NCBI GenBank assembly: GCA_017992455.1
Contig: JAGOOP010000006.1
Coordinates: forward strand, 1,707 to 65,706
Source of the DNA: Candidatus Omnitrophota bacterium
Lineage (GTDB): Bacteria; Omnitrophota; Gorgyraeia; Gygaellales; Profunditerraquicolaceae
Length of the DNA stretch: 64,000 nt
Direction: 5' to 3'
In this document: piece by piece, positions 16,891 to 32,349 of the stretch
Numbering within the stretch: position 1 is the first letter of the stretch
How the letters are laid out: every line of letters begins with the position of its first letter
Notes under the pieces: model-generated
Database searches by the model: none
What the model saw: only the letters and a program-made list of their open reading frames with translations
What the model was told of the DNA's origin: nothing
Program-made: the position numbers and the translations under genes

Positions 16891-16896
16891 AGTTTT

Positions 16897-18549
16897 TCAG
16901 ACTTTTCCTAATCCGAACGGCGGATACACTTCCGATTCGACCACAACGTCGATCAGCGCTGCCTTCCCGCAGGAAAGCGCATGCTTGAAAGCCGCGTCAA
17001 AATCCTCGAGTTTCTCAACATGCACGCCTGATGCCCTGCACGCCTCGGCATATTTGACGAAATCAGGGTTGGTGAATTGCATGAACGCCTGGTCGTTGAA
17101 CAGATTCAGCAGAAATTTCTTGATGACATTGAACTCGCCGTTATTGAAAATGACCCAGATGACCGGGATATTGTATTGTATCGCGGTCATCAGCTCGAAT
17201 CCCGCCATCTGATACGCGCCGTCCCCGCACCCGCAGATAACCGGCCGGCCCGGGTTCGCGCACTTTGCGCCGATCGCGCCGTTGACATGGCTTGCCATAG
17301 GGCCGAAACTTCCCGGGTTCTGATACACCTGATGTTTGGTCAGGTGCAGATAGCAGTTGAGCCAGAGCATATGCGAGCCGGCGTCGCCCATGACGATCGC
17401 GTTCTCGGGCATATTACGTGACATCGCCTTGACAAGGTCGGCCGGATGGATCTTGGTTCCGGGCGGCTGCACTGCCCGGTCATGCCACAGGTCCTTTTCG
17501 ACTTTCCTGACGGCGACCGAACTCACCCGCTTGGCCAGCGCCTGATGGAGCGCGATGATCGCAGGTTTTGCGTCGCTGTGCACCGGGCAATCGGCCTTGT
17601 ATACCTTGCCGATCTCATGCGGATCGATATTGATATGGATGAGGACCTTGTCCTTGAACAGGTCCGGCTTGAACCCGAAGCTCCAGTTCTGCGCGAATGA
17701 GTTGCCGATCGCGAGGATCACTTTGGAAGCGAGCAGATATTTATTCGCGCCGGGGTCGCCTGATGTGCCGAAGATGCCCGCGTACAACGGATGGTCTTCA
17801 GGGATCAGTCCTTTTGAATCCATCGTCGCGGTGAACGGTATCTGGAATTTTTCGGAGAACTCCTGCGCATCCTTTTCGCCGTGGCTTCTGATGACCCCGT
17901 ATCCGTACACCGCGCAGATCTGCTCGTTGTTCCGGATGGCCTGTGCCAGAGCATCCGCAGCGGCATCGATCTCGGACTGTTTCGGCAGGACCTTTTTGAT
18001 ATCGACCTTGATCTCGCGGAAATTCTTCACCGGCATGATCGTCACGTCTTTGGGCACGTGGACATGCACCGGCCCGGGCCGGCCTTCATAGGCGAGATTG
18101 ATCAATTCCTCAAGGATATCGCAGGTCGAATCAGGGTCTTCGATGATCCTGGATTTCTTTGTCGTCGCATTGAACATTGCGGGAGAATCAGGGGTGCGGG
18201 ATTTTCCGGTCGCCTCGTTCAGAGCGCCTTTGCCGCGGTCGCGCGCCGAGGTATACCCCGAGATCCCCAGAACAGGCAGGGAATCGGAATATGCGACCGC
18301 CAGGCCTGAGAACAAATTGAACTCGCCCGGGCCGCCGGTTGAAAAACACACGCCTAATTTATCGGAGAACATGGAATAACCGCATGCCATGAACGAAGCG
18401 GCCTGCTCATTGCGGATGATCACGGTTTTGACCTTCGTCGATTTTTTCAAAGCCAGCAGCATCGAGCCGTTGACCTGGCCTGATCCGCCGAACACATGGT
18501 CCACGCCCACGTGCTCGAGTGTTGCCACGATCGCCTCATTGACATCCAT
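16897..18549 (-). CDS. Thiamine-diphosphate-dependent enzyme, acetolactate-synthase-large-subunit-like
   Basis: 550 aa. N-terminal Pyr domain (GVDHVFGGSGQVNGSMLLAL). C-terminal TPP-binding motif GCGDGAYQMAGFELMTA...NNGEFN. SD AAGGAG. Confidence 0.9.
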   Translation of the reverse strand: MDVNEAIVATLEHVGVDHVFGGSGQVNGSMLLALKKSTKVKTVIIRNEQAASFMACGYSMFSDKLGVCFSTGGPGEFNLFSGLAVAYSDSLPVLGISGYTSARDRGKGALNEATGKSRTPDSPAMFNATTKKSRIIEDPDSTCDILEELINLAYEGRPGPVHVHVPKDVTIMPVKNFREIKVDIKKVLPKQSEIDAAADALAQAIRNNEQICAVYGYGVIRSHGEKDAQEFSEKFQIPFTATMDSKGLIPEDHPLYAGIFGTSGDPGANKYLLASKVILAIGNSFAQNWSFGFKPDLFKDKVLIHINIDPHEIGKVYKADCPVHSDAKPAIIALHQALAKRVSSVAVRKVEKDLWHDRAVQPPGTKIHPADLVKAMSRNMPENAIVMGDAGSHMLWLNCYLHLTKHQVYQNPGSFGPMASHVNGAIGAKCANPGRPVICGCGDGAYQMAGFELMTAIQYNIPVIWVIFNNGEFNVIKKFLLNLFNDQAFMQFTNPDFVKYAEACRASGVHVEKLEDFDAAFKHALSCGKAALIDVVVESEVYPPFGLGKV

Positions 18550-18563
18550 AGTCGACTCCTTTA

Positions 18564-18633
18564 AAAAAAGGGGGACGCTTCCCGTTTTCCCGGGACGCTT
18601 CCGCGTTGAAAACGGGAAGCGTCCCCCTTTTTT
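18564..18633 (-). terminator. REP-B inverted pair forming a 25-bp perfect hairpin terminator
   Basis: 18564-18588 (aaaaaagggggacgcttcccgtttt) is the reverse complement of 18609-18633. The loop holds a third partial copy (gggacgcttcc). T/A runs flank it, and it abuts the stop codon at 18632. Confidence 0.8.
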
Positions 18634-18850
18634 ATTTCTGGTTGAACTTGCCGACAGCCAGTTTCGGGGGATTTTCAGAGAACAGCACGCCGTTGGATGC
18701 CGCGTTATCGAGCGTGTAGCCGTTGAAAAAAAGATAAATGCGGTCCTTGGGCACTTTCGATATTTCTGAGAATATCGTTATATATTTATCGGCGAGGACC
18801 TTCTTCTGCTCGTCGGTAAGTTCCAGGGAATGGATGATGATCGCGGGCAT
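18632..18850 (-). CDS. 4-oxalocrotonate-tautomerase-family-like small protein
   Basis: 72 aa starting MPAIIIHSLELTDEQKKVLADKYITIFSEI (Pro-1 after Met, beta-alpha-beta pattern). SD GGAGG. Confidence 0.6.
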   Translation of the reverse strand: MPAIIIHSLELTDEQKKVLADKYITIFSEISKVPKDRIYLFFNGYTLDNAASNGVLFSENPPKLAVGKFNQK

Positions 18851-18936
18851 ATGCGCCTCCGGAGTATATGATGCCGGGTGGACATGAAAATGCGGGCGGA
18901 CGCGCGCCTGCCGCGCGCCCGCCGCATGAACGCAGT

Positions 18937-19707
18937 TTACAGTTTTTTGCTTGCGAGCACTTCTGCTACCTTTTTGCCGTACGCGATCGAAGATTCGACC
19001 GATGTGCCGGTAACGAACGGCCAGTCATAGGCAACCGACGGATTCTCGCGGTTTGCTTTTTCTATTGCAATGCACTTGCCGTTCGGGCCGACTGCGTCGC
19101 GGACCAGATGTTCCAGCGGCCACAGGAAACCGGGAGTATGGACGTCCGTGCCTTTGTTATCGGCAGATGCGCCGTACAGGTCATAGGTAAAATCCCAATC
19201 CGGGCCGTAGAAATCCCATGACGCCGGATGCGCGGTGATCTTTTTGCCGTAGATAACGCTGTTCTTGGTCTTGTCGTCGCGGCAGAACACGAGCGCCGTG
19301 ACGGAATAACACAATGCCCCGACGAGTTTTCCCTGCGCGAGCGCGTCTTTGATCAGTTTGTGCAGATTGTAATTATTGCACATGTCGATCATGGCGCCGA
19401 GGCCGCCGGTCAGGACAAGCGCGTCATAGTCCTTCATGTTCGCGTCCTTGAACTTGATCGGCTTTGCCCACTCATTGCCGTCGGTCAATTCCTTGATCCT
19501 TTTGCATACGTCAGGCGGATTCGTGTGCGCGTTGATGATCGGGTCCACGAAATCCGGGTTCACGCTCACTGCCAGCGGCAGCGGCTTTTTGCCGAACCAG
19601 GTCGTCAGCGTCAATTGGTGCCCCGCGGCCTTGAGAATATCCCACGGCGCCTGCAATTCTTCTCCCCATACGCCGTAATTTGTGGCGCATACCAGTACTT
19701 TTGCCAT
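18937..19707 (-). CDS. Type 1 glutamine amidotransferase-like (DJ-1/PfpI superfamily) protein
   Basis: 256 aa. MAKVLVCATNYGVWGEELQAPWDILKAAGHQLTL, ALVLTGGLG and GALCYS (nucleophile elbow). SD AAGGAGG. Confidence 0.8.
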   Translation of the reverse strand: MAKVLVCATNYGVWGEELQAPWDILKAAGHQLTLTTWFGKKPLPLAVSVNPDFVDPIINAHTNPPDVCKRIKELTDGNEWAKPIKFKDANMKDYDALVLTGGLGAMIDMCNNYNLHKLIKDALAQGKLVGALCYSVTALVFCRDDKTKNSVIYGKKITAHPASWDFYGPDWDFTYDLYGASADNKGTDVHTPGFLWPLEHLVRDAVGPNGKCIAIEKANRENPSVAYDWPFVTGTSVESSIAYGKKVAEVLASKKL

Positions 19708-19762
19708 TCCCGCCTCCTTGGTTTCGCCGCCGCGCCCCTGTGACGGGCCGGGCGGACCGGTG

Positions 19763-20131
19763 TTATTTTTTCGCTTTTATCCGCTTTCCAGCATTGCCGC
19801 CCTTGGCCTTCCACGGAAAGTCCTTCTTGACCGGGGTGAAAAGATCGATCGCCTCGGTCTGCCCCACAGCGACGAACTCATGCCACACGTTCGGCGGGAT
19901 GAAATACGCGTCCCCCGCTTTCAACAGGGTCTTTTTTCCGCCGATGTTCATCCTGAATCCGCCCTTGATCACATAGCCGAACTGCTCCTGCTTATGCCTG
20001 TGCCATTTCACCACGCTTTTATTCGCCATATCCCAATGCTGGGCGTTCAACTTCCTGCCCTCGCCCAGATACTGGCGGATAACGCCTCCTCCCATGTCGA
20101 ACTTATCGAGCTTTTTCCTGAATACGTACAT
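19763..20131 (-). CDS. Cupin domain protein
   Basis: 122 aa. HRHKQEQFGYVIKG ... GDAYFIPPNVWHEF matches the two cupin motifs. SD GGAGGG. Confidence 0.8.
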   Translation of the reverse strand: MYVFRKKLDKFDMGGGVIRQYLGEGRKLNAQHWDMANKSVVKWHRHKQEQFGYVIKGGFRMNIGGKKTLLKAGDAYFIPPNVWHEFVAVGQTEAIDLFTPVKKDFPWKAKGGNAGKRIKAKK

Positions 20132-20143
20132 CGGCCCTCCTTC

Positions 20144-20434
20144 CTATTCCATGCCTTCGACGCAGAACACATCCGCACATGCCGCATGCAAACGCAGTTT
20201 CTTCGCTTCCCCGTAATCCGATGAATCCCACCAGTCCCGCGCCGCCTGCATATCCTTGAACTCAAGCACAATGATACGCCGGGGATCCGGATCGCCTTCC
20301 CACACCTCCGTCTTCCCGCCGCGCACGAGCGGCTTTCCGCCATGCGCAAGGATCGTCGGAGCGCCCGCCTTCATATACTTGGCGTATTGCTCCTGATCCT
20401 TGACATCGACATTGATGATGACATACGCAGACAT
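20144..20434 (-). CDS. DUF1330 domain protein
   Basis: 96 aa. MSAYVIINVDVKDQEQYAKY...ILAHGGKPLVRGG...IIVLEFKDMQAARDWWDSSDY. Confidence 0.8.
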   Translation of the reverse strand: MSAYVIINVDVKDQEQYAKYMKAGAPTILAHGGKPLVRGGKTEVWEGDPDPRRIIVLEFKDMQAARDWWDSSDYGEAKKLRLHAACADVFCVEGME

Positions 20435-20441
20435 TTCGCGA

Positions 20442-21011
20442 TTATCCTTTTGCCGCGATCAATTCAATGATCTTCTTCGCGAACACGTTACAATGGCCGC
20501 CGCTGCGGCCGGTGACCAGATCCCCGTCCACGACCACGTCCTCGTTGACATAAACCGCGCCCATGTTCTTCGCGTCGCCGAGCAGATTATTGTGCACAAC
20601 GACCTTACGTCCCTTTACCAGCTCGGGAGCCGGCGCAATAAGCCACATGCCGTGGCAGATAATGCCTTTAATGATATTCTTCTGGGCAAAGGCCCGCTTC
20701 ATGAATTCCGTCGCCGGCGGCAGTTTACTGACGTCTTCGGTATAGCGCAGGCGGTCCGCCACCATGCCCGCAGGCACGATGATCGCAGCAAAGCTCTTCA
20801 ACTGCGCATCGTCCATATCCTCAAAGCTCTCATGACAATCCATAGGGATCTGATATTCATGGCCCTTGAACGTGAGCGACGTGCAGCCCCACAGCCTCGT
20901 CATAAAATGCACGTCGATGCCTTCTTCGGCAAAACGGAACTTATAATACCATATCTCCGGTTCATAATAATCCCCTTCGAGCAAGATCCCGATCTTTTTG
21001 CCTTTCAACAT
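20442..21011 (-). CDS. DJ-1/PfpI family protein
   Basis: 189 aa. KKIGILLEGDYYEPEIWYYKFRFAEEGIDV and GIICHGMWL (Cys elbow). Its start overlaps the upstream gene end by 7 nt. Confidence 0.8.
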   Translation of the reverse strand: MLKGKKIGILLEGDYYEPEIWYYKFRFAEEGIDVHFMTRLWGCTSLTFKGHEYQIPMDCHESFEDMDDAQLKSFAAIIVPAGMVADRLRYTEDVSKLPPATEFMKRAFAQKNIIKGIICHGMWLIAPAPELVKGRKVVVHNNLLGDAKNMGAVYVNEDVVVDGDLVTGRSGGHCNVFAKKIIELIAAKG

Positions 21012-22576
21012 GGTTTTGCCCCTTTCTGGGCGCCTGTATACCGCACCGCCAGCATCGTAATGTCATCGGACTGCTGCGCGCCGCGGGCGAATACCGTCAC
21101 TTCCCGGCGCATTGCCTGGATCATGTCCTTGATACCGTTATCCTTAAGCGAAATGAGCTTTTCGCGAAGCCGCTCTTCGCCGAATTGTTTTCTATCCGGG
21201 TCCATGGCCTCGGTCACGCCGTCGGTATAGAGGAAGATCGTATCCCCGGGCTTCAAGCGCAGGCGCTCATTCGTGCATTTCAGGTCAGCCATGATACCCA
21301 CCACGAACCCGCACGCCATCTTGATGAAATTGAAACAGCCGGTCGCGTCGCACACCAGCGGCGGATTGTGGCCGCCGTTGGAGAACTCGATCTCGCCGGT
21401 GGCGATATCGAGGATCGCGCAGAAGACCGTGACGAACAGGCACGTCTGGTTGTCCTGGCACAGGATGCTGTTGACCACGGACAGGACCTCGTCCGTCGCC
21501 AAGCCCTGCTTCGCCTCGGTCTTGATGAGCGTCTTGCAGATGGCCATGAACAGCGCCGCGGGCACGCCCTTGCCTGAAACGTCGCCGATGACAAAGCACA
21601 ACCGCGACTCGTCGATGAAGAAGAAATCGTAAAAATCCCCGCCCACTTCTTTCGCCGGGTCCATCATGGCGAACAGTTCGAACTCCGCGCGTTCCGGGAA
21701 CACGCTCGGCAGCATGCTCGCCTGGATCTCCTGGGCGATGCGCAGTTCGCTTTCGATGCGCTCGCGCGCCGCGGTCTCGGCCTTGAGGTTCTCGATGAAC
21801 CGCTTGATGGAAAGCTGTATGAGGTCGATCGCCATGGCAGGATCTTTGCCGAAAAATTCGATCACCTCGTCCTTGCCCATCGTATAAACGTCCGTGTCTT
21901 CCTCGCACACGGCTGAAGCGGTCCGTTCCTTGAACGGCGAAAAGATGCCCATTTCCCCGAGCACATCGCCCTGCTTGACGACCTTGTCGATCTCAGGCAG
22001 ACGGATCGAGCCTTTGGCGATATAGAACATGCGGTCTGCCTTATCCCCTGCCTTGAACAGGCAATCCCCTTTTTTGTACGTCTCAAGCTTCATGAACGAG
22101 ATCGGCCAGCGGCACGAGTTGCCCGCTTTCGCAGCGGAGGCCTGGACCGCCGAATGCAGGTCCTTGGGGCTGCACGTATTGTATTTGACAAGGGTCAGGA
22201 TATTGCGGTCATTGTCCCGTTTATACGAAACATCGTCCATGATCTTCTTCATCATGAATACGCCCAGGCCGCCGATCTGGCGTTCTTCGATGGGCTTGTG
22301 GATATCGGGTTCGGGAAGGGATAAAGGATCAAAGGGGACGCCGGAATCGATGACCGTTATTTCCAGATATGAATTGCTGTTGAGATAGGTGATCTCGAGG
22401 TCTCCCGTGCCGCCGGGATACGCGTAATTGATCACGTTGACAAGCGCCTCTTCGCAGGCAAGCTGTATCTTGTCGATGTGCTCCTTGACAAAACCCTGGC
22501 GGGCTGCGCCTTCTCTGATAAAGGCGAACATGGTTTCGAGATTTTCCAGTTTGGCGGGCAGGACAAGGCGTTCCAT
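21005..22576 (-). CDS. Tri-domain fusion: RsbW-like GHKL kinase + cyclic-nucleotide-binding domain + PP2C/SpoIIE phosphatase
   Basis: 523 aa. Residues 1-135: CEEALVNVINYAY...GGLGVFMMKKIMDDV (HATPase_c_2-like). Residues ~165-260: FKAGDKADRMFYIAKG...GDVLGEMGIF...RTASAV (cNMP phosphate-binding cassette). C-terminus: AKEVGGDFYDF, GDVSGKGVPAALFMA, DGVTEA and SDDITMLAV (SpoIIE). Confidence 0.85.
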   Translation of the reverse strand: MERLVLPAKLENLETMFAFIREGAARQGFVKEHIDKIQLACEEALVNVINYAYPGGTGDLEITYLNSNSYLEITVIDSGVPFDPLSLPEPDIHKPIEERQIGGLGVFMMKKIMDDVSYKRDNDRNILTLVKYNTCSPKDLHSAVQASAAKAGNSCRWPISFMKLETYKKGDCLFKAGDKADRMFYIAKGSIRLPEIDKVVKQGDVLGEMGIFSPFKERTASAVCEEDTDVYTMGKDEVIEFFGKDPAMAIDLIQLSIKRFIENLKAETAARERIESELRIAQEIQASMLPSVFPERAEFELFAMMDPAKEVGGDFYDFFFIDESRLCFVIGDVSGKGVPAALFMAICKTLIKTEAKQGLATDEVLSVVNSILCQDNQTCLFVTVFCAILDIATGEIEFSNGGHNPPLVCDATGCFNFIKMACGFVVGIMADLKCTNERLRLKPGDTIFLYTDGVTEAMDPDRKQFGEERLREKLISLKDNGIKDMIQAMRREVTVFARGAQQSDDITMLAVRYTGAQKGAKPC

Positions 22577-22597
22577 GCGTTCTGTGGTCCCTGAATG

Positions 22598-22918
22598 CTA
22601 TTTGGTATAGGTATCTGCGACGGTCAGGAAATTATCGAGGCCGGACATCTTGATGACGTTGAGGATCGCGTCAGGCGCGCCGATGAGCAATACCTGCGCA
22701 TCCACGCCGATCTTCTGCTTGGCGAAGATGATGACGCGCAAGCCTGCGCTTGATATATATTCCAGTTCCTTCGCCATGAATACAAGTTCGGCGATCTTTT
22801 GTCCGATGAACTTCTTCAATTCCGCCTGGAGGCCTTCCGCGTTGGTCGCGTCGAGGCGGCCGCACAGCTCGACCTTCAGGATCTCATTGGCGCATGAACA
22901 GGTGTATTTCGACTCCAT
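22598..22918 (-). CDS. STAS domain anti-sigma-factor-antagonist-like protein
   Basis: 106 aa. ELEYISSAGLRVIIF retains the phosphorylatable Ser motif. SD AAGGAG. Confidence 0.85.
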   Translation of the reverse strand: MESKYTCSCANEILKVELCGRLDATNAEGLQAELKKFIGQKIAELVFMAKELEYISSAGLRVIIFAKQKIGVDAQVLLIGAPDAILNVIKMSGLDNFLTVADTYTK

Positions 22919-22950
22919 GGATATTGTCTCCTTTGTTGTGGCGCTGCGAT

Positions 22951-25086
22951 TTATTTTATGTCTTTGCCGGTCAAGATCACGACCGACCGGGGGCCTACTA
23001 AAAATTCGTTCTGGTTCTCAAGCTTTACCTCTTTGCCGGGCTGCCAGATATCGAACGGCGGCTCGGCGTCGGTATTGGCGAACACATACCACTCCATATG
23101 ATGGTTGAGCTTCGGCAGTTCGAACCCGTGCATGTCCCAGTGCATGTTCATCGCGACATATATGGAGTTGTCGTCGACCGTGCCGCCTTTGGCATGCATG
23201 CCGCAGAGCAGAAACGCCAGCATCCTGCTGTCAGGCGACCAATCCACGTTCCATGCCTTCTGGCCGTGCCAGGTGATATCCGCAAAACCCGACCCCATGT
23301 AATCGCGGTTCTTGAAATGGCCGCTCGAGCGCAGGACCGGATGCGCCCGTCTGAACGCGATCATCTGTTTGAAGAAATTGAACAGCTCTTTATTCGTATT
23401 GAGCAGCGACCAGTCGATCCATGATATCTCGTTATCCTGGCAGTAGGCGTTGTTATTGCCCCACTGGGTATTTGCCATCTCGTCGCCGGCAAGGATCATA
23501 GGCGTTCCCTGGCTTACCAGAAGCATCGCCACGGCGTTCTTCATCTGCTTCATGCGCAGCTTGTTGACCGCAGGGTCGGTCGATTCGCCTTCCCAGCCGC
23601 AGTTCCAGCTGTAATTGTCGTTGCCGCCGTCGGAATTGTTCTCGCCGTTGGCCTCGTTGTGCTTGCCGTTATACGAAACCATGTCGTAGAGCGTGAAGCC
23701 GTCGTGCGCGGTGATAAAATTGATCGACGCGGTCGCGCCTCTTCCCTCCCATGAATACAGGTCAGGAGAACCCTGCAGGCGCTGAGCCATGCCGCCCAGG
23801 CTGCCGGGCTCGCCCTTTAAGAATTTGCGCAGGTCATCGCGGTATTTGCCGTTCCACTCTGCCCAGCGGCCCCATGCGGGAAAGCTTCCGACCTGATACA
23901 GGCCGCCTGCGTCCCATGCCTCTGCGATCAGCTTGCATTTTCCCAGGATCGGGTCGAACGCGAGCGTTTCCAGAAGCGGCGGCGAGTGCATGGGAGCGCC
24001 GTTCTGGTCGCGTCCGAGGATCGACGCGAGATCGAACCGGAATCCGTCCACGTGATAATCCGCCGCCCAGTACCGCAGGCAGTCGAGGATCATGTTGCGC
24101 ACAATGGGATTATTGCAGTTGAGGGTATTGCCGCAGCCTGAAAAATTGAAGTAATACCCGTCGGGTGTGAGCAAATAATAGGTCTTATTATCAATGCCTT
24201 TATAGGAAATATACGGCCCCTTTTCATTCCCTTCAGCGGTATGGTTGAAGACCACGTCGAGGATCACCTCGATGCCGTTCTTATGAAGCTCCTTGATCAG
24301 GGTCTTGCATTCGTCAACCTGCATGCCGAATTTTCCCGTTGCGGCAAAACCCGCCTTGGGCGCGAAGAATCCGACGTTCGAATATCCCCAGTAATTCATG
24401 AGCATCTTTCCCGTTGCGGGAGAGATACGGGAATTCTCGAACTCGTCGAATTCGTGTATGGGCATGAGCTCCACGCAGGTAACACCGAGCTCCTTGAGAT
24501 ACGGTATTTTTTCCTTGATGCCAGCGAACGTGCCCGGATGCTTGACGCCCGACGACGGATGCTTGGTGAACCCGCGCACGTGCATCTCGTAAATGATCAG
24601 ATCCTCGATCGGGGTCTCGAGCGGATGGTCGCTCTCCCAGTCGAAATCGTCGAAACAGATGCGGGCGCGGTGCTGGTATATGTCGTTCCAGTCAGGGTTC
24701 TTGCCCCACACGTCCCTGCCGCCGATGGCCTTGGCATACGGGTCCATGAGGACCTTTGTCCTGTCGAACCGGTGGCCCTGCCGCGCGTCGAACGGGCCGT
24801 CCATATAAAAACCGTATTCGAGATTCTCGTAATCGAGGTCGAACACGATCATGGTAAAAACATTGCCGATGCGGAATTCGTCCTTGAAGGGGATGACGCA
24901 GAACGGCTGAGGCTCATGCTTGTTGAAAAGCGCCAGCTTGCACGATGAGGCTGAGCGGGAATAGATCGAGAAGTTCACCCCGCCGGGCACGATGCTCGCT
25001 CCGAACGGCAGCGGCTTTCCGACGCGCAGATGGTATTTGCCGTCCTCGCTCACATGGGTCGGATGCAGGTCAACGCGCAGCATCAT
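22951..25086 (-). CDS. glgX: Glycogen debranching enzyme GlgX (GH13)
   Basis: Start moved to ATG 25086 (MMLRVDLHP...), which forms an ATGA overlap with the upstream STAS stop. Motifs IEVILDVVFNHT, VDGFRFDLASILG, IAEAWD and NFITAHDGFTL. Confidence 0.9.
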   Translation of the reverse strand: MMLRVDLHPTHVSEDGKYHLRVGKPLPFGASIVPGGVNFSIYSRSASSCKLALFNKHEPQPFCVIPFKDEFRIGNVFTMIVFDLDYENLEYGFYMDGPFDARQGHRFDRTKVLMDPYAKAIGGRDVWGKNPDWNDIYQHRARICFDDFDWESDHPLETPIEDLIIYEMHVRGFTKHPSSGVKHPGTFAGIKEKIPYLKELGVTCVELMPIHEFDEFENSRISPATGKMLMNYWGYSNVGFFAPKAGFAATGKFGMQVDECKTLIKELHKNGIEVILDVVFNHTAEGNEKGPYISYKGIDNKTYYLLTPDGYYFNFSGCGNTLNCNNPIVRNMILDCLRYWAADYHVDGFRFDLASILGRDQNGAPMHSPPLLETLAFDPILGKCKLIAEAWDAGGLYQVGSFPAWGRWAEWNGKYRDDLRKFLKGEPGSLGGMAQRLQGSPDLYSWEGRGATASINFITAHDGFTLYDMVSYNGKHNEANGENNSDGGNDNYSWNCGWEGESTDPAVNKLRMKQMKNAVAMLLVSQGTPMILAGDEMANTQWGNNNAYCQDNEISWIDWSLLNTNKELFNFFKQMIAFRRAHPVLRSSGHFKNRDYMGSGFADITWHGQKAWNVDWSPDSRMLAFLLCGMHAKGGTVDDNSIYVAMNMHWDMHGFELPKLNHHMEWYVFANTDAEPPFDIWQPGKEVKLENQNEFLVGPRSVVILTGKDIK

Positions 25087-25430
25087 GCGCCCCCTTTGCC
25101 GACCGCCGCGACAGCGGCGTTGATGTCCGGGAAGGATTTGAAGAAATTGGAGAACCCGGTCATTTCCATGACGTCCTTGATCTCGTCGCATACGCCGCTC
25201 AAAGCAAGCGTCCCGCCTCTGCCCGATACCTGCTTTGCGGCCATGAGCAGAAGCCGCAGGCCTGCGCTTGAAACATACCCGCAGCCCTTCAGGTCGAGCA
25301 CGAGCGACTTCGTATCCGGCGCTAAAAGCGGCATGATCTTTTCCTGCGCTTCATTGACCGTATTTCCGTCAAGGTTACCCGATAAGGTGACGATGGCCAC
25401 ACCTTCCTGTTTGCTCATCTGGATGTCCAT
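25083..25430 (-). CDS. STAS domain anti-sigma-factor-antagonist-like protein
   Basis: 115 aa. LDLKGCGYVSSAGLRLLLMAAK. The stop overlaps the glgX start. Confidence 0.85.
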   Translation of the reverse strand: MDIQMSKQEGVAIVTLSGNLDGNTVNEAQEKIMPLLAPDTKSLVLDLKGCGYVSSAGLRLLLMAAKQVSGRGGTLALSGVCDEIKDVMEMTGFSNFFKSFPDINAAVAAVGKGGA

Positions 25431-25440
25431 GCGATCTCCT

Positions 25441-27261
25441 TTACGCTGTCGGAACGATCCGTACCTTGATCTTCGGCCGGTAATTCACATTGGGGATGCT
25501 CACGGTCAGCTTCTGCGCATCGAAATTCTTCCACGGGTTGCCGTCCACCCACACGTCCGATATCCTGATGCTTCCCGGAGGCAGGATATCCGGCTCGACG
25601 CGCAGGACATCGCCGGGAAACCCCTGCGGCATGGGCTTGAAATAAAGGTCAAGCGGCTGTTTCGTATACAGAAGGTTCTGGTATATCTGGGCCAGATAAC
25701 ACAGCTCGATCGAGTGGTAACAGGCCATGGAATGGCTCCCCTTCAGCCGCTCGGTGCCCAGCAAAAACGGCAGGCCGTTGTTCAGCACGTTGAAATACAC
25801 GGCTCCGTCGTCGTGATCGAGATAGAACGCGTTATAGAACGCGGCCGACTCGCGGCCGAGCCGCAGGTATTCCGGATCTTTGAACACGCCGTGCATGATG
25901 TCATACGCGAGGATCCCCTGCTCCTGCTGCCACCACGCCTTGCGGTCATGCCACACATGGCGGTAACATTGTTCGCCCGGCGCAAGCTCCCGTTCCATAA
26001 CGTCATACCAGCCGCCGCGCTGAACGTCCATGCCCACGCCCGGCATCACCTTGGCGATCTTTTTGGAAAATTCCACGTATTTATCCTTGGGCACAAGGCT
26101 GTTGATGCGCGTCAGGTTCCATGCGATCTTGAGGTTATGGCCGATGACGCCGCGGTTCTGCTGCCATCCCCATGTCTTGTCATGGCTCCAGTCCTCATGG
26201 AATTTTTCCTGAACGAACGGGCTGTGTTCATAATCCTGGAAATGGTCCGTGATGCAGTCGGCGGTATATGCGAGGAAATCCTTATATTTGGGATCTCCGG
26301 TCGCCAGCCACAGGTTGATCAGATACGCGGGCGCGTGATCTCCGACCGAATTCCAGTTCTTGCGCGCGCGGTTGCGGCCGAGCGATTCAGCCCGGGGATC
26401 GAGTTTCAAGGGATCGATATGCGAGAAATACCCGCCCTTTTCCTTATCGAGGAAGAAACGGTCGAACAGGTCGATCGTCATCTTGATATCTTTCATGATC
26501 GCCGGGTCGCCGCTGATGCGATATGTCTGCGTCGGGCCTGCGAGCGCGTATATCTGCTCATATGCCGGGATCGCGTCATAATCGTCGCCGAATTCTGACG
26601 CGAACACTTTGTGTTCGCGGCCGTGCTTGACATCGATGCCGTGATACCAGTACACGACGTTCTCGTCCGTATCGTAGAACCGCATATGGTCGCGCAGATA
26701 CTGAACGCCTTTTTCAGCCGTATTGAGGAACCGGTCCTCGCCGGTCAGAAGGAACGCGGATGCCATTCCGTAGATCATGCGGGAGATCGTGTCCGTCTCC
26801 TGGCGGTGGTCTGTCTTGCGTTCGCCGGTCAGGGAGACATTCGTGCGGTAATTATTATAATCGATGGTGTCCGCAGAGCCGAATTCCGCCCTGATATAAA
26901 AATCAGCGATATTCGCTGCCTGCTTTACCCACCAGTCAGGCTCTTCAAAGCGGTATTTGCCCAGGCCTTCGCCCGGGAACACGAGCACTTTGGCGTCAAA
27001 ATCATACCGGTCTTTTTCAGGGTAGAAAATGCCCAGAACGAACAGATACTGGCCCGGGACCATGAGCGAATCGACCCTGCCCGTATAATCGCACCAGCCC
27101 TCACCCAGGTTGCGCGGCCCTTTTGCATACGCAGTGCCGGTCATGCGGCCTGAATATTCCCGGCCGTCTGACGTCTTCAATGAAAAAGTTTTTTTATCAC
27201 GGTCGTAACTCGTTACATAACCTGCAATTGTATCGGAGAACTCAAAACTTACCTTATTCAT
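25441..27261 (-). CDS. AGE (N-acylglucosamine 2-epimerase) superfamily epimerase/isomerase with ~130-aa N-terminal extra domain
   Basis: 606 aa. (alpha/alpha)6-barrel-type repeats: GGYFSHIDP, GDHAPAYLINLWLATGD, IGHNLKIAWNL, GGWYDVMERE, WWQQEQGILAY. Confidence 0.8.
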   Translation of the reverse strand: MNKVSFEFSDTIAGYVTSYDRDKKTFSLKTSDGREYSGRMTGTAYAKGPRNLGEGWCDYTGRVDSLMVPGQYLFVLGIFYPEKDRYDFDAKVLVFPGEGLGKYRFEEPDWWVKQAANIADFYIRAEFGSADTIDYNNYRTNVSLTGERKTDHRQETDTISRMIYGMASAFLLTGEDRFLNTAEKGVQYLRDHMRFYDTDENVVYWYHGIDVKHGREHKVFASEFGDDYDAIPAYEQIYALAGPTQTYRISGDPAIMKDIKMTIDLFDRFFLDKEKGGYFSHIDPLKLDPRAESLGRNRARKNWNSVGDHAPAYLINLWLATGDPKYKDFLAYTADCITDHFQDYEHSPFVQEKFHEDWSHDKTWGWQQNRGVIGHNLKIAWNLTRINSLVPKDKYVEFSKKIAKVMPGVGMDVQRGGWYDVMERELAPGEQCYRHVWHDRKAWWQQEQGILAYDIMHGVFKDPEYLRLGRESAAFYNAFYLDHDDGAVYFNVLNNGLPFLLGTERLKGSHSMACYHSIELCYLAQIYQNLLYTKQPLDLYFKPMPQGFPGDVLRVEPDILPPGSIRISDVWVDGNPWKNFDAQKLTVSIPNVNYRPKIKVRIVPTA

Positions 27262-27321
27262 TTTCGTCCCCTTGGGTTATACAACCGACGAGCGGATTGA
27301 ATATCGTCTATTGCAGCCAAT

Positions 27322-27349
27322 AAAAAAGCCAAGGCGCGAATGCCTTAGC
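27322..27349 (-). terminator. Intrinsic terminator (or attenuator) between the STAS gene and the AGE operon
   Basis: Minus-strand RNA gcuaaggc-auucgc-gccuuggc has an 8-bp stem with one G-U and is followed by UUUUUUAUU. It lies ~135 nt after the STAS stop (27487) and ~60 nt before the AGE ATG (27261). Confidence 0.55.
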
Positions 27350-27446
27350 GTGAGATCATCATTCTTCGGATATACGTTCTCTGAAAACGATTCATACGGC
27401 CTCATCCGGATAATGTGTTTTTCCCTAACCTTCAGACAACGAAGGT

Positions 27447-27455
27447 ATTATAACA
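27447..27455 (-). promoter_or_regulatory. Candidate extended -10 promoter (TGTTATAAT)
   Basis: The minus-strand sequence reads aaaTGtTATAATacc in an AT-rich tract. A possible -35 TTGTAT sits 16 nt upstream (27469-27474). Confidence 0.35.
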
Positions 27456-27486
27456 TTTCTTTGAAATAATACAAGCAAATATTGCT

Positions 27487-27867
27487 TCAGCCCGAGGTAT
27501 CTTTGGCGCGCTTCTGGATCTCCATAAAATAGCGGTCCGCCTCTTCCATGCTCTCGAAAACCTTTACATCAGGCAGCGCCTTAACGATCTCGAACACCTT
27601 GGCGATCTGGACAGGGATATTCGCCATCACAAAGCTCGCGCCTTTTTCTTCAAACATCTTTTTCGACATCAGTATGGCGCTGATACCCATTGAACTGACA
27701 TATTCCAGCTCCGCAAGGTCCAGGATCGCGCCGGTGACCGCTTTGGCGATCAACTGCCTGCTTTTATCGAGCAGCTGCGTATGGGTCTCGGTGTCAAGAT
27801 GTCCTTTCAACTTGATGATGACGGTGTTCTCATCCTCTTTTCTGAATACACTCAGCTCTAAAGCCAT
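27487..27867 (-). CDS. STAS domain anti-sigma-factor-antagonist-like protein
   Basis: Start moved to ATG 27867 (MALELSVFRKEDE...; SD AGGAGG). LAELEYVSSMGISAIL. Confidence 0.85.
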   Translation of the reverse strand: MALELSVFRKEDENTVIIKLKGHLDTETHTQLLDKSRQLIAKAVTGAILDLAELEYVSSMGISAILMSKKMFEEKGASFVMANIPVQIAKVFEIVKALPDVKVFESMEEADRYFMEIQKRAKDTSG

Positions 27868-27892
27868 GGACCCTCCTTGTATGATAGGGGAA

Positions 27893-29761
27893 CTATCCCG
27901 GATATTCGAACACGACCGCGGTAATGTCGTCGAACTGCCTGCCTTTACCCTCGAACGCAGCATGGCGCTGTTCAAGATGCGCAAGCGCTTCGTCGATGGG
28001 CATGGCACGCACGCCCGTTACGCTGTTTTTGAGGTTCTCGATCCCGAATTCCCTGCCCGTTGTTGACCGCGCCTCGGTCCATCCGTCCGTATACATGAAC
28101 ATCCTCATATCCCGCGTAAAAGACTGCCGGACTGTCGTAAATCTGATGTTCTCCATAAGGCCCAGAGGCGGGCCGGAGGCGGGCAGGACCTCGATAACTC
28201 CTTCGGCTGTTTTATTCGTTACCAGCGCCGCCGGATGTCCGGCGCAGGCGCCCTCCCAGTACCCGTCCTTATGATGCACGACGACATACTGCCCGGTAAC
28301 GAACCTGCCGTTCAAAAGGGGCTTGAGCTGATTGTTCAACACATACAATACCTCAGCCGGATCGCGCGACATGCGGCCGGCAACCCGCAAAAGCGATATC
28401 GTCTGCGCCATGATAAGGGAGGCGCTCACCCCTTTGCCCGATACATCGCCGATGAACACGCCGAACGCGGCCTCGTCGAGCGCGATGATATCGTACAGGT
28501 CCCCGCCCACGAACCGGGCCGCTTTCAGATACGCGCGGATGTCCACGGGACCGATCCGGCGCACGTCCGGCGGCAGGAAACTGCGCTGGATGCTCGCGGC
28601 GATCTCGAGCTCCTTTTCAAGAAGCCGCCTTTTCTGGACCTCTTCGAAAAATTTGGCAAGCAGCACGACCGCATACACGATCCCGATGCAGGCCAGGGGC
28701 AGAAAAACGTCGATGAATATGCCCTGATATGCAAAGAGCGTCCATGCGGCAAGAACATATACGCCCGCGACCGCAATGCATATTCCGAACGCCGCGACCG
28801 GAGCCGCCGCGGCGCAGACTGCGAACGCCGTTGCCGCAACCGCGATACCGATAAGCGCGCGGCCGACAGCGCCGGCGCGCTTGACAAACGCATTGCGCAG
28901 GATACTGTCGCAGACGCTTGCCTGCGTTCCGACCATCGGATAGACCGGATCGATCGGATTTGCCCGGAAATCCGAGGTTCCCGCAGCGGTCAATCCCACA
29001 AAGCATATGGCATCCTTTAATACGCTCAGATCGAGCCACGAAGACGCGCCTTTTTGCATCGCAGCCGCAGCCCGCAGCACGTCAAGATAGGAATAATGCG
29101 AAAATGTCCTGGTCCAGGGGCCCGGATAATTCACCCATATCGCGCCCGACGCTTCGGCGGCTTTGTTCAAAACATCTTCCACCGGCACGCCCAGATATTG
29201 CGAAGCGGCGAGCACGCCGAGCGACGGGAACAGCTCGCTGCCGTGCCGGATCATTGCCGGCACCCTGCGCACTTTCCCGTCGCGGTCGACGATGATATTG
29301 ATATGGCCGGCGCCTGCCGCATGTTCCCGCAATGCCGGCGCAACGCCCGCCAGCATCTCGCTTGAAACCGCAGGCGGTCGATACTGCATGCGCTCCAGCT
29401 GGAACGCCATGGGAAGAAAAACCCTGCCTGAACGCCGCAGGACTTCGGATAATACCGGGTCTGAGCCGGATGGCTCGGCAAGAAGGATATCGAAAACGAT
29501 CATGCGGCATCCTGCCTGCGTCAGCGCGTCGATCAATGCGGCATGGAAATCCCTGGACAAAGGCCATCGGCCAAGGGCCTTGATGGTGTCATCCGCTATC
29601 TCGATCACTGCGATGCCAGGATGCGTGGCCTGGACAGGCCGCGTCCTCATCAGCCAGTCATACGCGGCCATTTCCTGATGATCGAAAAAACCCGAGAACA
29701 CCGCCCCATTGATGCACAGGACCGGAACGAGGACCGCCCAATACCGGAATACCCGTTTCAT
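27893..29761 (-). CDS. CHASE2 sensor domain-containing PP2C/SpoIIE phosphatase
   Basis: 622 aa. N-terminal TM, then CHASE2-like region (IAVIEIADDTIKALGRWPLSRDFHA), then ~3 TMs. SpoIIE part: ARFVGGDLYDI, GDVSGKGVSASLIMA, TDGWTEA, FDDITAVV. ATGA overlap with the upstream RsbW gene. Confidence 0.85.
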   Translation of the reverse strand: MKRVFRYWAVLVPVLCINGAVFSGFFDHQEMAAYDWLMRTRPVQATHPGIAVIEIADDTIKALGRWPLSRDFHAALIDALTQAGCRMIVFDILLAEPSGSDPVLSEVLRRSGRVFLPMAFQLERMQYRPPAVSSEMLAGVAPALREHAAGAGHINIIVDRDGKVRRVPAMIRHGSELFPSLGVLAASQYLGVPVEDVLNKAAEASGAIWVNYPGPWTRTFSHYSYLDVLRAAAAMQKGASSWLDLSVLKDAICFVGLTAAGTSDFRANPIDPVYPMVGTQASVCDSILRNAFVKRAGAVGRALIGIAVAATAFAVCAAAAPVAAFGICIAVAGVYVLAAWTLFAYQGIFIDVFLPLACIGIVYAVVLLAKFFEEVQKRRLLEKELEIAASIQRSFLPPDVRRIGPVDIRAYLKAARFVGGDLYDIIALDEAAFGVFIGDVSGKGVSASLIMAQTISLLRVAGRMSRDPAEVLYVLNNQLKPLLNGRFVTGQYVVVHHKDGYWEGACAGHPAALVTNKTAEGVIEVLPASGPPLGLMENIRFTTVRQSFTRDMRMFMYTDGWTEARSTTGREFGIENLKNSVTGVRAMPIDEALAHLEQRHAAFEGKGRQFDDITAVVFEYPG

Positions 29762-30189
29762 GAAAGGCTCTGAATGGTTTTCGACATCCTGACGCCGCTG
29801 CCGTTGTCGTAGAACTCGACTTTATCCATAAGCTTGCGCATGAGATACACGCCGCGGCCCGAGGGCTGATGCGCCTTTTCTCCCCGTGTCGGGTCGGGAA
29901 GGACGCGGAAATCGAACCCGTCGCCTTCGTCATGGATGTCCATGGTGATCTGCCGGGGGCCCGCGTCGATATGCACGGTGACAAAACAACGCTCATCGAG
30001 CCGGTTTCCGTGGCGCATGGAATTGACCATCGCTTCCTCGAGCGCGAGCTTGATCTTGAATACATCGTCCTTGGAGCCGATCAACGGCAGAAGTTCCTGC
30101 GCGACGCGGTCAAGGAACGGGTTGACGGCCTTCAGGTCGGTCTTGAGCTTCTCGTGCACGCGGTATATGGATGCCATATGGTCCGTCAT
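29758..30189 (-). CDS. RsbW/SpoIIAB-type anti-sigma regulatory factor (Ser/Thr kinase, GHKL ATPase)
   Basis: 143 aa. LALEEAMVNSMRHGN, DEGDGFD and GRGVYLMRKLMDKVEF. ATGA overlaps at both ends. Confidence 0.85.
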   Translation of the reverse strand: MTDHMASIYRVHEKLKTDLKAVNPFLDRVAQELLPLIGSKDDVFKIKLALEEAMVNSMRHGNRLDERCFVTVHIDAGPRQITMDIHDEGDGFDFRVLPDPTRGEKAHQPSGRGVYLMRKLMDKVEFYDNGSGVRMSKTIQSLS

Positions 30190-30578
30190 GCGAAACGTTC
30201 CGGCGGTTTAATATTGCCCTTCTGGACCCCGTCGAGGAATTTGTCAAGGTATTCGTCCGCTTCGGTCAGGCTTGCGAACATCTGGGGGCTCAATATCTTC
30301 ATGGTATCGAATACCTGCTTGACCTGCGGCTGCATGTTCACCAGCGCGATCGTTCCCGCGCGCTCTTCGACCGCCAGCTTGACGCGGAAAAGCGCGCTCA
30401 GTCCCATTGAGCTGATATACGAAACCTGCCCCATCTCGAATACGACGGCCTTTGCTTTCGGCACGATATCTTTCAGCCGCTCTTCGAACAGCTGATACGT
30501 TTCCGTATTGATCTCGCCTTTGGGCGCTGCGACAAAAACCCCGGATTCCTTCTCAATGATCGAAACATCCAGAGCCAT
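30186..30578 (-). CDS. STAS domain anti-sigma-factor-antagonist-like protein
   Basis: Start moved to ATG 30578 (MALDVSIIEKE...; SD AAGGAGG). MGQVSYISSMGLSALF. Confidence 0.85.
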   Translation of the reverse strand: MALDVSIIEKESGVFVAAPKGEINTETYQLFEERLKDIVPKAKAVVFEMGQVSYISSMGLSALFRVKLAVEERAGTIALVNMQPQVKQVFDTMKILSPQMFASLTEADEYLDKFLDGVQKGNIKPPERFA

Positions 30579-30588
30579 TGCGGCCTCC

Positions 30589-31629
30589 TTATTTTTTGGG
30601 ATTTTTCTGCGGAACAGGTTTTTTATGCAAAGGCGCCTTTTTCTCAACAGCGCCGCCTGCGTTATGCAGGGCGCTGCGTTCCTGCGCCTGAAGCTCTTTG
30701 AGCTTCTGCGGTGCCTGCTGCTTGAACTGTTCCTGCACTTTCAATTCCTTGTCCTTCCGGGGCTCCTGCTCTTTGAACTGCTGTTTGAGCTGCTGTTCCC
30801 TGGCCTGCTGCTTGAGCTGCTGCCCATCAGCCTGCTCTGCCCGCTTCCGATCCCCGCTGACCAGCGGTTTGAATCCGTCTTCCGGACGGGCCTTTTTGCC
30901 CTTCATCTCCTGAATAAAATCCTTGCGGTTGAACTGCGGCCGCTCCTGCCGCTTGATGACCGCCTCGCCTGCGCGACGGCGCACCTGCTGCTTCATGTCC
31001 TGCCATTTCTGCTGCCTGCCTGCAGCCATGGGACGGGGCTGCATGGGCGGCTGGAACCGTTTCACCGTGGTCATCTGGCCGGGCTGTATCATGGTCATCT
31101 GCGCTGATTTCACGCCGGCGGATTCAAAATGCCTGACATACGGGATGCTGTCGATTGCCTCGACGTCAGTCCCTTCGCCGCTGACCTTCGTGACCCAATC
31201 GGTCCCCCGTGCGCCGGATACCGCCGTCGGCGTGCGGATCTCGAACGAACTGCCGCCTGCCAGTTCGCTGACAGAAGCGAACACCTCGCCCGTCGTCATG
31301 GAAAGCTTTTCGTCGCCGGACAATACCACCTCGGCATCCGTATTCTCGTTCAACCGCACCACATTGGTATTCGCCTCGTTGAACGAAAGTTCGGCTGACC
31401 CCCCGTCGGATGTCTTTATCGTATCGCCTGCCTCAAGCGCCATGCCTTCCTGCGCCGCAGCGTATTCGTCAGCGCCTTCAAGCAGAACTTCGACCGTGCC
31501 GTTCACCGATATGATCTCGGCCTGGTCAGCGGCTGCGAAGGAACAGGCGCATAAAAGAAAAAAACCGCACAAAACAAAAGAAACCATGCTCCTCTTGTGC
31601 GTGCGATTTTCCATACGCATTGTTTTCAT
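30589..31629 (-). CDS. Secreted FecR domain-containing protein with K/Q-rich tail
   Basis: Signal peptide MVSFVLCGFFLLCACSFAAA. FecR-like core IISVNGTVEVLLEGADEYAAAQEGMALEAGDTIKTSDGGSAELSF. Tail QQLKQQAREQQLKQQFKEQE... The start could be M1 (31629, leaderless-type) or M15 (31587). Confidence 0.8.
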   Translation of the reverse strand: MKTMRMENRTHKRSMVSFVLCGFFLLCACSFAAADQAEIISVNGTVEVLLEGADEYAAAQEGMALEAGDTIKTSDGGSAELSFNEANTNVVRLNENTDAEVVLSGDEKLSMTTGEVFASVSELAGGSSFEIRTPTAVSGARGTDWVTKVSGEGTDVEAIDSIPYVRHFESAGVKSAQMTMIQPGQMTTVKRFQPPMQPRPMAAGRQQKWQDMKQQVRRRAGEAVIKRQERPQFNRKDFIQEMKGKKARPEDGFKPLVSGDRKRAEQADGQQLKQQAREQQLKQQFKEQEPRKDKELKVQEQFKQQAPQKLKELQAQERSALHNAGGAVEKKAPLHKKPVPQKNPKK

Positions 31630-31637
31630 ACGCTGAT

Positions 31638-31666
31638 ATTATATCGGAAATTTACAGTAAAATCAA
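31638..31666 (-). promoter_or_regulatory. Sigma70-type promoter, leaderless-type geometry
   Basis: Minus strand: TTGATT (31661-31666), 17 nt, TATAAT (31638-31643). ATG 31629 begins 8 nt after the -10. Confidence 0.5.
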
Positions 31667-31697
31667 TCATTCACTGCCCGGCCTGCTCACTCACTGA

Positions 31698-32333: not shown

Positions 32334-32349
32334 CACCGGCCTCCTTTGA

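Follow-up and report, generated by a model that had tools for sequence, protein, structure and literature searches.

The subject of this analysis is a gene cassette on the minus strand of a 64-kb stretch of Candidatus Omnitrophota DNA (the window, by which the whole stretch is meant), in which genes for STAS-domain proteins are interleaved with genes of glycogen and sugar catabolism. All cassette coordinates refer to the minus strand. In the direction of transcription, the cassette encodes an AGE-superfamily sugar epimerase/isomerase of the Slr1855 type (606 amino acids (aa), 25441-27261, Pfam PF07221), STAS2 of the Slr1856 type (115 aa, 25083-25430, Pfam STAS and TIGR00377, predicted phospho-acceptor Ser55), an isoamylase-type glycogen debranching enzyme GlgX of the Slr1857/GlgX2 type (711 aa, 22951-25086, Pfam and TIGR02100), STAS3 of the Slr1859 type (106 aa, 22598-22918, Pfam STAS and TIGR00377, predicted phospho-acceptor Ser57), a fusion of an RsbW-like serine kinase, a cyclic nucleotide monophosphate (cNMP)-binding domain and a PP2C/SpoIIE phosphatase (523 aa, 21005-22576, Pfam) and a DJ-1/PfpI-family protein with a Cys-His nucleophile elbow (20442-21011, Pfam and NCBIfam PfpI subfamily). 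The order AGE-like, STAS, GlgX, STAS given in the original prediction was borne out, with each gene at its predicted position on the minus strand, and so was the overlap between the STAS2 stop and the glgX start (ATGA at 25086-25083). The junctions of the cassette are tight or overlapping, and good Shine-Dalgarno sequences precede the STAS2 and STAS3 genes. A longer glgX open reading frame (ORF) of 746 aa, starting at 25191, was dismissed because the homologs span 704-717 aa.

GlgX is composed of CBM_48, Alpha-amylase and ISOA1-3_C domains (Pfam) and scores above the NCBIfam GlgX equivalog TIGR02100 (715.5 against a cut-off of 640.9). The GH13 motifs DVVFNH, GFRFDLA, EAWD and FITAHD, read from the translation, are intact. 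Its best PDB matches are to plant ISA1 (1e-186), ahead of E. coli GlgX (1e-130), and with a score of 545 it misses the cut-off of 901 set in the E. coli-type model NF002983. With the E. coli-type GlgX (glgBXCAP) the enzyme thus shares the GH13 debranching type, CBM48 and the catalytic motifs, whereas it belongs to an isoamylase-like subfamily nearer to plant ISA1. The E. coli glgX gene is located among glycogen synthesis genes and is not known to have a STAS neighbour. The top matches of three of the cassette proteins are in Candidatus Omnitrophota metagenome-assembled genomes (MAGs), with identities of up to 89% for GlgX, 97% for STAS2 and 87% for the AGE-like protein.

The AGE-like protein matches Pfam GlcNAc_2-epim (PF07221; 44 bits against a cut-off of 23), and no NCBIfam model matched it. 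Its AlphaFold2 model (predicted local distance difference test score 81, predicted template modelling score 0.87) has an (alpha/alpha)6 barrel between N- and C-terminal beta domains; these additional beta domains set it apart from the solved members of the AGE superfamily. The best Foldseek matches of the model were 8h1l (glucose 2-epimerase), 3wkf, 5zig and 5x32 (E 5e-13 to 1e-10), the best structural matches being glucose 2-epimerase, cellobiose 2-epimerases, mannose isomerase and YihS. The cellobiose 2-epimerase 5zig aligns with the protein across the GH(N/D) and YH motifs, where its H375 (GHNLKIAW) and H516 (YHS), each invariant across 35 homologs, correspond to histidines of the cellobiose 2-epimerase. 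From these fold matches and the retained catalytic histidine pair it follows that the protein is a genuine, uncharacterised sugar epimerase or isomerase. An assignment as a six-hairpin glycosidase (GDE_C-like) was dismissed, since by fold as well as by sequence the protein is best matched by 2-epimerases and isomerases, and it retains the catalytic histidines.

STAS2 and STAS3 score 72 and 48 bits against Pfam STAS, respectively, and both pass TIGR00377. They represent two distinct paralog families, the Slr1856-type upstream and the Slr1859-type downstream of glgX. All four STAS proteins of the window carry the (I/V)SS(A/M)G phospho-site motif, as had been claimed; it reads VSSAG in STAS2 and ISSAG in STAS3. 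Ser55 of STAS2 aligns to SpoIIAA Ser58, and the predicted acceptor serine is invariant in both families (Ser55 in 72/72 STAS2 members, Ser57 in 65/65 STAS3 members). The closest solved structure to STAS2 is the structural-genomics entry 4HYL, itself a member of the upstream family.

The gene directly after the second STAS gene (21005-22576), which the original prediction had overlooked, encodes the kinase-cNMP-phosphatase fusion. Pfam places HATPase_c_2 at residues 6-131, cNMP_binding at 165-243 and SpoIIE at 323-513, within an RsbW-like kinase region (1-140), a cNMP-binding region (~150-260) and a PP2C/SpoIIE region (~320-515). Its PDB matches are RsbW (6m36), the CRP family, Rv1364c, SpoIIE and RssB-type PP2C. 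A GE...RTA phosphate-binding cassette, which we take to be comparable to that of CRP, was read from the sequence of the cNMP domain, and the N-box (E..N) and G-boxes of the kinase and the PP2C motifs GDVSGKG, DGVTEA and DDITML were found by eye in the translation. Across the window, the kinases score 99 and 81 bits against PF13581 and the phosphatases 172, 126 and 178 bits against PF07228; the kinase domains lie far under the RsbW and SpoIIAB equivalog cut-offs (NCBIfam). Taken together, these domains make it likely that the fusion is a bifunctional kinase/phosphatase acting on two STAS proteins in a cNMP-controlled phospho-switch.

The fusion was not regarded as an assembly artefact, because the same 523-525-aa form recurs in L001, L002, P0355 and P0356. 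Among the surveyed loci described below, it is present in the Omnitrophota loci L001 and L002 and split in L003. Full-length matches to the kinase-cNMP-PP2C order were limited to two 50%-identity clusters among 1.84 billion representatives. Many of the best 150 representatives match the fusion in two stretches. Phosphatase-then-kinase (sensor-PP2C-kinase) fusions therefore appear to be common and the kinase-cNMP-phosphatase order of the window rare. A CHASE2-adenylate/guanylate cyclase encoded elsewhere in the window (1819-4056, minus strand) is a candidate source of the cyclic nucleotide for the cNMP domain. It adjoins a beta-barrel-like protein and lies near a FecR-domain protein (5152-6009) and a POTRA/ShlB-type protein (6044-7783), the whole stretch (1819-7783) being on the minus strand.

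Knowledge of the icfG cluster in Synechocystis dates from the 1990s, and we know of no explanation, 25 years on, for the placing of a debranching enzyme gene between its two STAS genes. In Synechocystis PCC 6803, operon slr1852-1862 contains the cluster (slr1855-slr1861), which encodes the AGE-like Slr1855, the STAS protein Slr1856, an isoamylase/GlgX2 (slr1857), the STAS protein Slr1859, the PP2C phosphatase IcfG (slr1860) and the RsbW-like kinase Slr1861 (PMC8670252, PMC12329169); Slr1855 is annotated as N-acetylglucosamine 2-epimerase (PMC8670252). The kinase phosphorylates both STAS proteins, and the phosphatase dephosphorylates only the upstream-type one (PMC11619594, PMC12329169). The cluster has been linked to the co-ordination of inorganic carbon and glucose metabolism (PMC12329169, PMC11619594). 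Darkness, when glycogen is consumed, raises the phosphorylation of Slr1856 and Slr1859 in vivo (PMC7466104), and icfG and slr1859 mutants have growth phenotypes with glucose and low carbon (PMC11619594).

The window shares with this cluster the core order AGE-like, STAS, isoamylase-type GlgX, STAS and kinase/PP2C, the two STAS paralog families, the conserved phospho-serine and a nearby DJ-1-like gene, and there is a sigma gene in neither; a Synechocystis MAG (L020) has the same gene order as the window. Since gene order, paralog identity, the AGE-like neighbour and the kinase/PP2C all agree, the unit is very probably an icfG-type cassette. The two differ in that kinase and phosphatase of the window form one polypeptide with a cNMP-binding domain, whereas in Synechocystis the two are separate proteins, the GAF-GAF-PP2C protein IcfG and the kinase Slr1861, and in that DJ-1 lies downstream in the window and upstream in Synechocystis. 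The host of the window cassette is Candidatus Omnitrophota, and a second partner-switch module stands directly upstream of it. New with respect to the Synechocystis prototype are thus the kinase-cNMP-PP2C fusion, the host phylum and the adjoining second module. No description of a cross-phylum conservation of the STAS-GlgX-STAS core was found in the literature searched, the coverage of which was incomplete. A paper on M. smegmatis SigF that mentions GlgX and antagonists was set aside as unrelated to the cassette.

For the cross-phylum survey, the 80 closest GlgX relatives (60-84% identical) were taken from a one-genome-per-species collection. Loci were annotated with profiles built from the window proteins, GlgX starts were anchored by alignment, and neighbour families were clustered after masking the cassette genes. 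The loci came from Omnitrophota, Cyanobacteria, Chloroflexota, Bacteroidota (including Phocaeicola and Bacteroides), Planctomycetota, Competibacteraceae, Streptomyces, Acidobacteriota, Firmicutes, Riflebacteria and others, more than 12 phyla overall. A same-strand STAS gene was located directly upstream of glgX in 71/80 loci, directly downstream in 64/80, on both sides in 59/80 and on at least one side in 76/80. The adjacency that the original prediction had proposed to look for in related genomes is therefore kept, and with 71 of the 80 closest relatives having a STAS gene immediately upstream it is far above chance. In most loci the STAS stop and the GlgX start are <=32 nucleotides apart, and a -4 offset like the ATGA of the window was seen in five loci.

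The AGE-STAS-GlgX-STAS core order is fixed in ~62/80 loci, cyanobacteria included. The second STAS gene is usually followed by the kinase, PP2C and DJ-1 take different places in different lineages, and kinase and PP2C are separate genes in L020 and most other loci. In a reverse test, three distant STAS2 relatives (42-51% identity) were all encoded directly upstream of an isoamylase-type GlgX gene (3/3), which in one of these loci (L085) is reduced to a 228-aa CBM48 fragment. In this metagenomic lineage (L085/L086, 7343-8897) the fragment is followed by a HAMP-SpoIIE gene, the cassette being either decayed or rearranged. In L056, L060 and L062 a lone STAS2-GlgX pair stands amid genes of other kinds, and the 8 kb around it are free of kinase and PP2C genes.

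Identity to the window proteins across phyla is 59-71% for the enzymes and 27-49% for the regulators, and phyla interleave in the GlgX identity ranking. Both patterns indicate horizontal spread, and the cassette is probably a conserved, horizontally mobile operon that moved as a unit. A switch that is transferred whole would work best if its target travels along.

The sensor domain of the phosphatase varies by lineage, being GAF in cyanobacteria, dCache-HAMP in several phyla and REC in Phocaeicola, with none in Streptomyces. In a Chloroflexia locus (L004) kinase, REC and PP2C are fused, which is the architecture of SypE. Sensors are thus swapped between lineages and the enzymes remain constant, a pattern of variable input and fixed output. 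In two metagenome contigs (L081/L082) a 779-aa membrane fusion of dCache, HAMP, SpoIIE and HATPase_c_2 is encoded directly upstream of STAS-GlgX.

The claim that the window lacks a sigma factor was confirmed by a Pfam scan of every plausible ORF in the 64 kb, in which no Sigma70 or Sigma54 domain was detected. Likewise, no sigma-like family was present among the conserved neighbours of the surveyed loci, nor did one rank in the top 25 Pfam families recorded for the 118 nearest flanking ORFs, and none of ~86 loci, drawn from more than 12 phyla, had a sigma gene beside the cassette. The accompanying statement that no anti-sigma target is nearby proved wrong, as RsbW-type kinase domains are encoded at 21005-22576 (residues 1-140) and at 29758-30189, the latter a stand-alone gene 2.5 kb upstream of the AGE-like gene. 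Canonical partner-switch systems usually carry a sigma gene in the operon. With RsbV-RsbW-SigB and SpoIIAA-SpoIIAB-SigF the window shares the SpoIIAA Ser58-type serine, the HATPase_c_2 kinase and the SpoIIE/PP2C phosphatase; it differs in having no sigma gene in the operon, in the 64 kb or next to the ~86 related loci, and in the 711-aa enzyme gene interleaved between its two STAS genes. The unit thus has all the components of a partner-switching system, without a co-encoded sigma factor.

An enzyme as output, which the original prediction had called unusual for partner switching, has precedents: it is established for SiaC-SiaD (PMC8457831) and was proposed for SypA (PMC8256260) and for HenR/All4160 (bioRxiv 10.64898/2026.04.08.717354). 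In Vibrio fischeri, SypE combines an N-terminal RsbW-like kinase, a central REC domain and a C-terminal PP2C in one protein and sets the phosphorylation of SypA, a STAS-only protein encoded in a polysaccharide locus, which is itself the output and acts on a non-sigma target (PMC8256260). The window fusion has the same N-terminal kinase and C-terminal PP2C, whereas its central domain is of the cNMP-binding type and a REC domain occupies that place in the Chloroflexia ortholog. Furthermore, there are two STAS proteins in the window instead of one, and the locus is catabolic (glycogen debranching) rather than for exopolysaccharide synthesis. In the SiaABCD system of Pseudomonas aeruginosa, unphosphorylated SiaC binds and activates the co-encoded diguanylate cyclase SiaD (PMC8457831, PMC7647112). 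Both this operon and the cassette encode a PP2C phosphatase, a kinase, a small switch protein and an enzyme; the enzyme is a diguanylate cyclase in one and a glycoside hydrolase, as putative target, in the other. SiaC is phosphorylated on threonine and is not known as a canonical Pfam STAS protein.

Co-evolution within the cassette was assessed by a crude mirror-tree analysis, in which evolutionary distance matrices were correlated over 40 dereplicated loci. The correlations were r = 0.71 for STAS2-GlgX, 0.69 for STAS3-GlgX, 0.64 for STAS2-kinase, 0.70 for STAS3-kinase, 0.51 for STAS2-AGE-like, 0.54 for STAS3-AGE-like and 0.55 for kinase-GlgX. The correlation of the STAS proteins with GlgX is hence on a par with that for the kinase, their known partner, and stronger than that for the AGE-like enzyme. 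The bootstrap confidence interval (CI) of r(STAS2,GlgX) minus r(kinase,GlgX) excludes 0.

In the mechanism that we propose, cAMP or cGMP at the central domain would shift the fusion protein between kinase and phosphatase activity, and the balance of the two would set the phosphorylation of STAS2 Ser55 and STAS3 Ser57. The STAS proteins, and not the kinase, would be the likely output because kinase and phosphatase are in one polypeptide, as in SypE. Most likely, one phospho-form of STAS2 (perhaps of STAS3) would bind the co-translated GlgX and gate debranching post-translationally, in a manner resembling the activation of co-transcribed SiaD by unphosphorylated SiaC. In a parallel route, the kinase domain may titrate a distal sigma factor, as Slr1861 does with SigC in Synechocystis. 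An icfG-type cassette with a phosphorylation switch embedded in sugar and glycogen catabolic genes, working by this mechanism, is our best explanation of the whole, one we give somewhat less than an even chance. Direct action of the STAS proteins on GlgX or the AGE-like enzyme, as suggested in the original prediction, is a substantial possibility that stays short of probable; for GlgX, such control is made plausible by synteny, the stand-alone STAS-GlgX pairs and weak co-evolution. More tentatively, and with more doubt than belief, we propose that STAS2 and STAS3 may be phosphorylation-dependent regulatory subunits of the isoamylase-type GlgX, possibly also of the AGE-like enzyme. With their kinase/phosphatase they would make up a self-contained, mobile, sigma-independent switch that would gate the mobilisation of glycogen post-translationally in at least 12 phyla with lineage-specific sensors (here for cAMP/cGMP, by way of the rare kinase-cNMP-PP2C fusion).

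Several observations count against direct enzyme control. The conserved gene order could partly reflect block transfer of the cassette rather than selection, and the STAS proteins are far less conserved than GlgX. Loci without a kinase still keep the phospho-serine, which implies kinases elsewhere and loci that are not truly self-contained. No STAS-GlgX or STAS-AGE fusion was present among the 120 GlgX, 114 STAS2 and 120 AGE homologs listed, and no test of STAS-GlgX binding was found in the literature searched (coverage incomplete). The co-evolution signal is weak and confounded by the physical linkage of adjacent genes, and the CI of r(STAS2,GlgX) minus r(STAS2,kinase) spans 0, so that this difference is not significant. 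[quoted passage not shown]

This last point belongs to a conventional sigma-directed switch, a doubtful but serious alternative in which the RsbW-like kinase domain of the fusion, the stand-alone RsbW at 29758-30189 or both would sequester a sigma factor whose gene lies outside the window. The role of STAS2 and STAS3 would then be limited to that of antagonists releasing it, and GlgX, the AGE-like enzyme and DJ-1 would be cargo or regulon without protein contact. Such a switch is consistent with the standard nature of all the parts, the SpoIIAA-type serine of the STAS proteins and a STAS3-kinase gene order that mirrors rsbV-rsbW. Slr1861 also phosphorylates Ssr1600, Slr1856 and Slr1859, with sigC distant in the genome (PMC12329169). 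The dedicated anti-SigC antagonist is, however, Ssr1600 and not Slr1856 or Slr1859, whose targets are called unknown in the same study (PMC12329169). Transcriptional misregulation could account for the growth phenotypes of the icfG and slr1859 mutants (PMC11619594), which, like the rise in phosphorylation in the dark, fit the sigma and the direct-enzyme models alike. A sigma-directed switch leaves the fixed positions of the STAS paralogs around glgX and the lone STAS2-GlgX pairs unexplained, and it sits poorly with a cassette that looks horizontally transferred among phyla of very different sigma repertoires and had a linked sigma gene in none of the loci. Direct control of the enzymes is favoured over it because the enzymes, unlike the variable inputs, are constant and form the best conserved part, because no sigma gene travels with the cassette between such phyla, because the STAS-GlgX-STAS order is kept while other members shuffle and lone STAS-GlgX pairs persist, because fusion of kinase and phosphatase, as in SypE, makes a STAS protein the logical output, and because operon-encoded enzyme targets are established (SiaC-SiaD) or proposed (SypA, All4160).

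It is unlikely that the enzymes are instead the signal source or buffer of a metabolic feedback sensor with its output elsewhere, in which the switch would read malto-oligosaccharides, epimerised sugars or carbon status, for example by ligand binding to the STAS proteins or the phosphatase. The constant co-encoding of enzymes and regulators, the link of the icfG cluster to inorganic carbon and glucose co-ordination (PMC12329169, PMC11619594) and the shift of STAS phosphorylation with light and dark (PMC7466104) would agree with such a sensor. The phosphatase sensors are, however, diverse and include extracytoplasmic dCache and CHASE2-like inputs, so that a cytoplasmic sugar is not the input throughout; the STAS proteins showed no identifiable ligand-binding feature, and the idea is purely speculative. 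Least probable by far is the absence of any functional link, with the gene order a frozen accident that spread horizontally as a block. The interleaving of phyla in GlgX identity does suggest horizontal transfer, and a shared history of adjacent genes alone can raise distance-matrix correlations. An accident would hardly account for a core kept in 59/80 loci (STAS2-GlgX in 71/80) despite the divergence of the regulators (to ~30-40% identity) and the moves of PP2C and DJ-1, for the maintained tight or overlapping junctions, or for the invariant phospho-serine.

The interleaved core in Omnitrophota, Cyanobacteria, Bacteroidota, Streptomyces, Chloroflexota, Planctomycetota, Competibacteraceae and Firmicutes turns what could be seen as a cyanobacterial curiosity into a general hypothesis, namely that bacterial glycogen breakdown may be under post-translational phospho-switch control. 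Carriers among the Bacteroidota include gut Phocaeicola and Bacteroides, and Competibacteraceae are glycogen-accumulating. If direct control is true, the few non-sigma outputs known for partner switching would be joined by a glycoside hydrolase, and carbon storage would prove to have a widespread regulator. If it is false, the cassette would still be a conserved regulatory and metabolic unit with uncharacterised AGE-like and DJ-1-type chemistry. In either case it is widely conserved and experimentally tractable.

Downstream of DJ-1, the minus strand encodes DUF1330 (20144-20434, Pfam), a cupin (19763-20131, Pfam), a ThiJ-like protein (18937-19707, Pfam), a 72-aa 4-OT tautomerase-like protein (18632-18850, NCBIfam DmpI-like), a thiamine pyrophosphate (TPP) enzyme (16897-18549, Pfam) and a glyoxalase (16436-16846, Pfam). 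These co-directional genes (16436-20434) probably share an operon with the cassette. DJ-1/PfpI was present in 54 of the surveyed loci, being 51-71% identical to the window protein across most phyla, and a TPP enzyme (31/80), a ThiJ-like protein (29/80) and a glyoxalase (24/80) also recur beside the cassette. The chemistry of the cassette-linked enzymes (DJ-1/PfpI, the second ThiJ-like protein, TPP-dependent enzyme, glyoxalase, 4-OT-like tautomerase, cupin and DUF1330) is typical of small reactive carbonyls or keto acids rather than of glycogen metabolism. GlgX, the AGE-like protein and DJ-1 are 51-71% identical across most phyla, which suggests a pathway that is uncharacterised and has spread horizontally. 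A long inverted repeat (16808-16913) separates the glyoxalase gene from the TPP-enzyme gene and has weak hairpin (miRNA) model matches on both strands.

Upstream of the cassette, the intergenic leader (27262-27486, minus strand) contains the extended -10-like sequence TGTTATAAT, followed after ~100 nucleotides by a terminator-like hairpin with a T-run (27349-27318), which is the top-ranked site of its kind on the minus strand, and then by 57 nucleotides to the AGE start. The same arrangement was seen in all four Omnitrophota loci (window, L001, L002 and L003), which have TGTTATAAT, ~100-130 nucleotides, a hairpin with a T-run and 50-90 nucleotides to the AGE-like start; their upstream genes differ and their leader sequences do not align. 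This layout may represent an attenuator of cassette transcription, or no more than the terminator of the neighbouring gene. Its fold is unremarkable (z-score -1.2), and an Rfam scan of 16000-32400 (E <= 0.1) gave chance miRNA-model matches alone and none for the leader.

The second partner-switch module (27487-30578, minus strand), directly upstream of the cassette, has the order STAS0 (30186-30578, ISSMG read from the translation), RsbW-like kinase (29758-30189, Pfam), CHASE2-PP2C membrane phosphatase (27893-29761, Pfam) and STAS1 (27487-27867, VSSMG read from the translation). ATGA overlaps occur at the STAS0/kinase and kinase/phosphatase junctions, and, like the cassette, the module has two STAS proteins per kinase. 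The other Omnitrophota loci lack such a module upstream of the cassette. A FecR-domain protein heads the module, the whole stretch being 27487-31629 on the minus strand. The window also encodes a third PP2C, dCache-HAMP-SpoIIE (32350-34260), with an NMT1/THI5-like protein after it (stretch 32350-35383, minus strand), and with four STAS proteins, two kinase domains and three PP2C phosphatases it is unusually rich in partner-switch parts.

Further along the minus strand, a 669-aa ORF with a non-ATG start (36607-38616) has two FecR-domain matches; this gene model is uncertain, as several overlapping ORFs with odd codon-position GC compete with it. An IS200-like Y1 transposase ORF (42674-43522) and an ORF6N-domain ORF (61375-61998), both on the minus strand, are located in the two lowest-GC stretches of the window (~0.50) and are possible mobile or foreign insertions.

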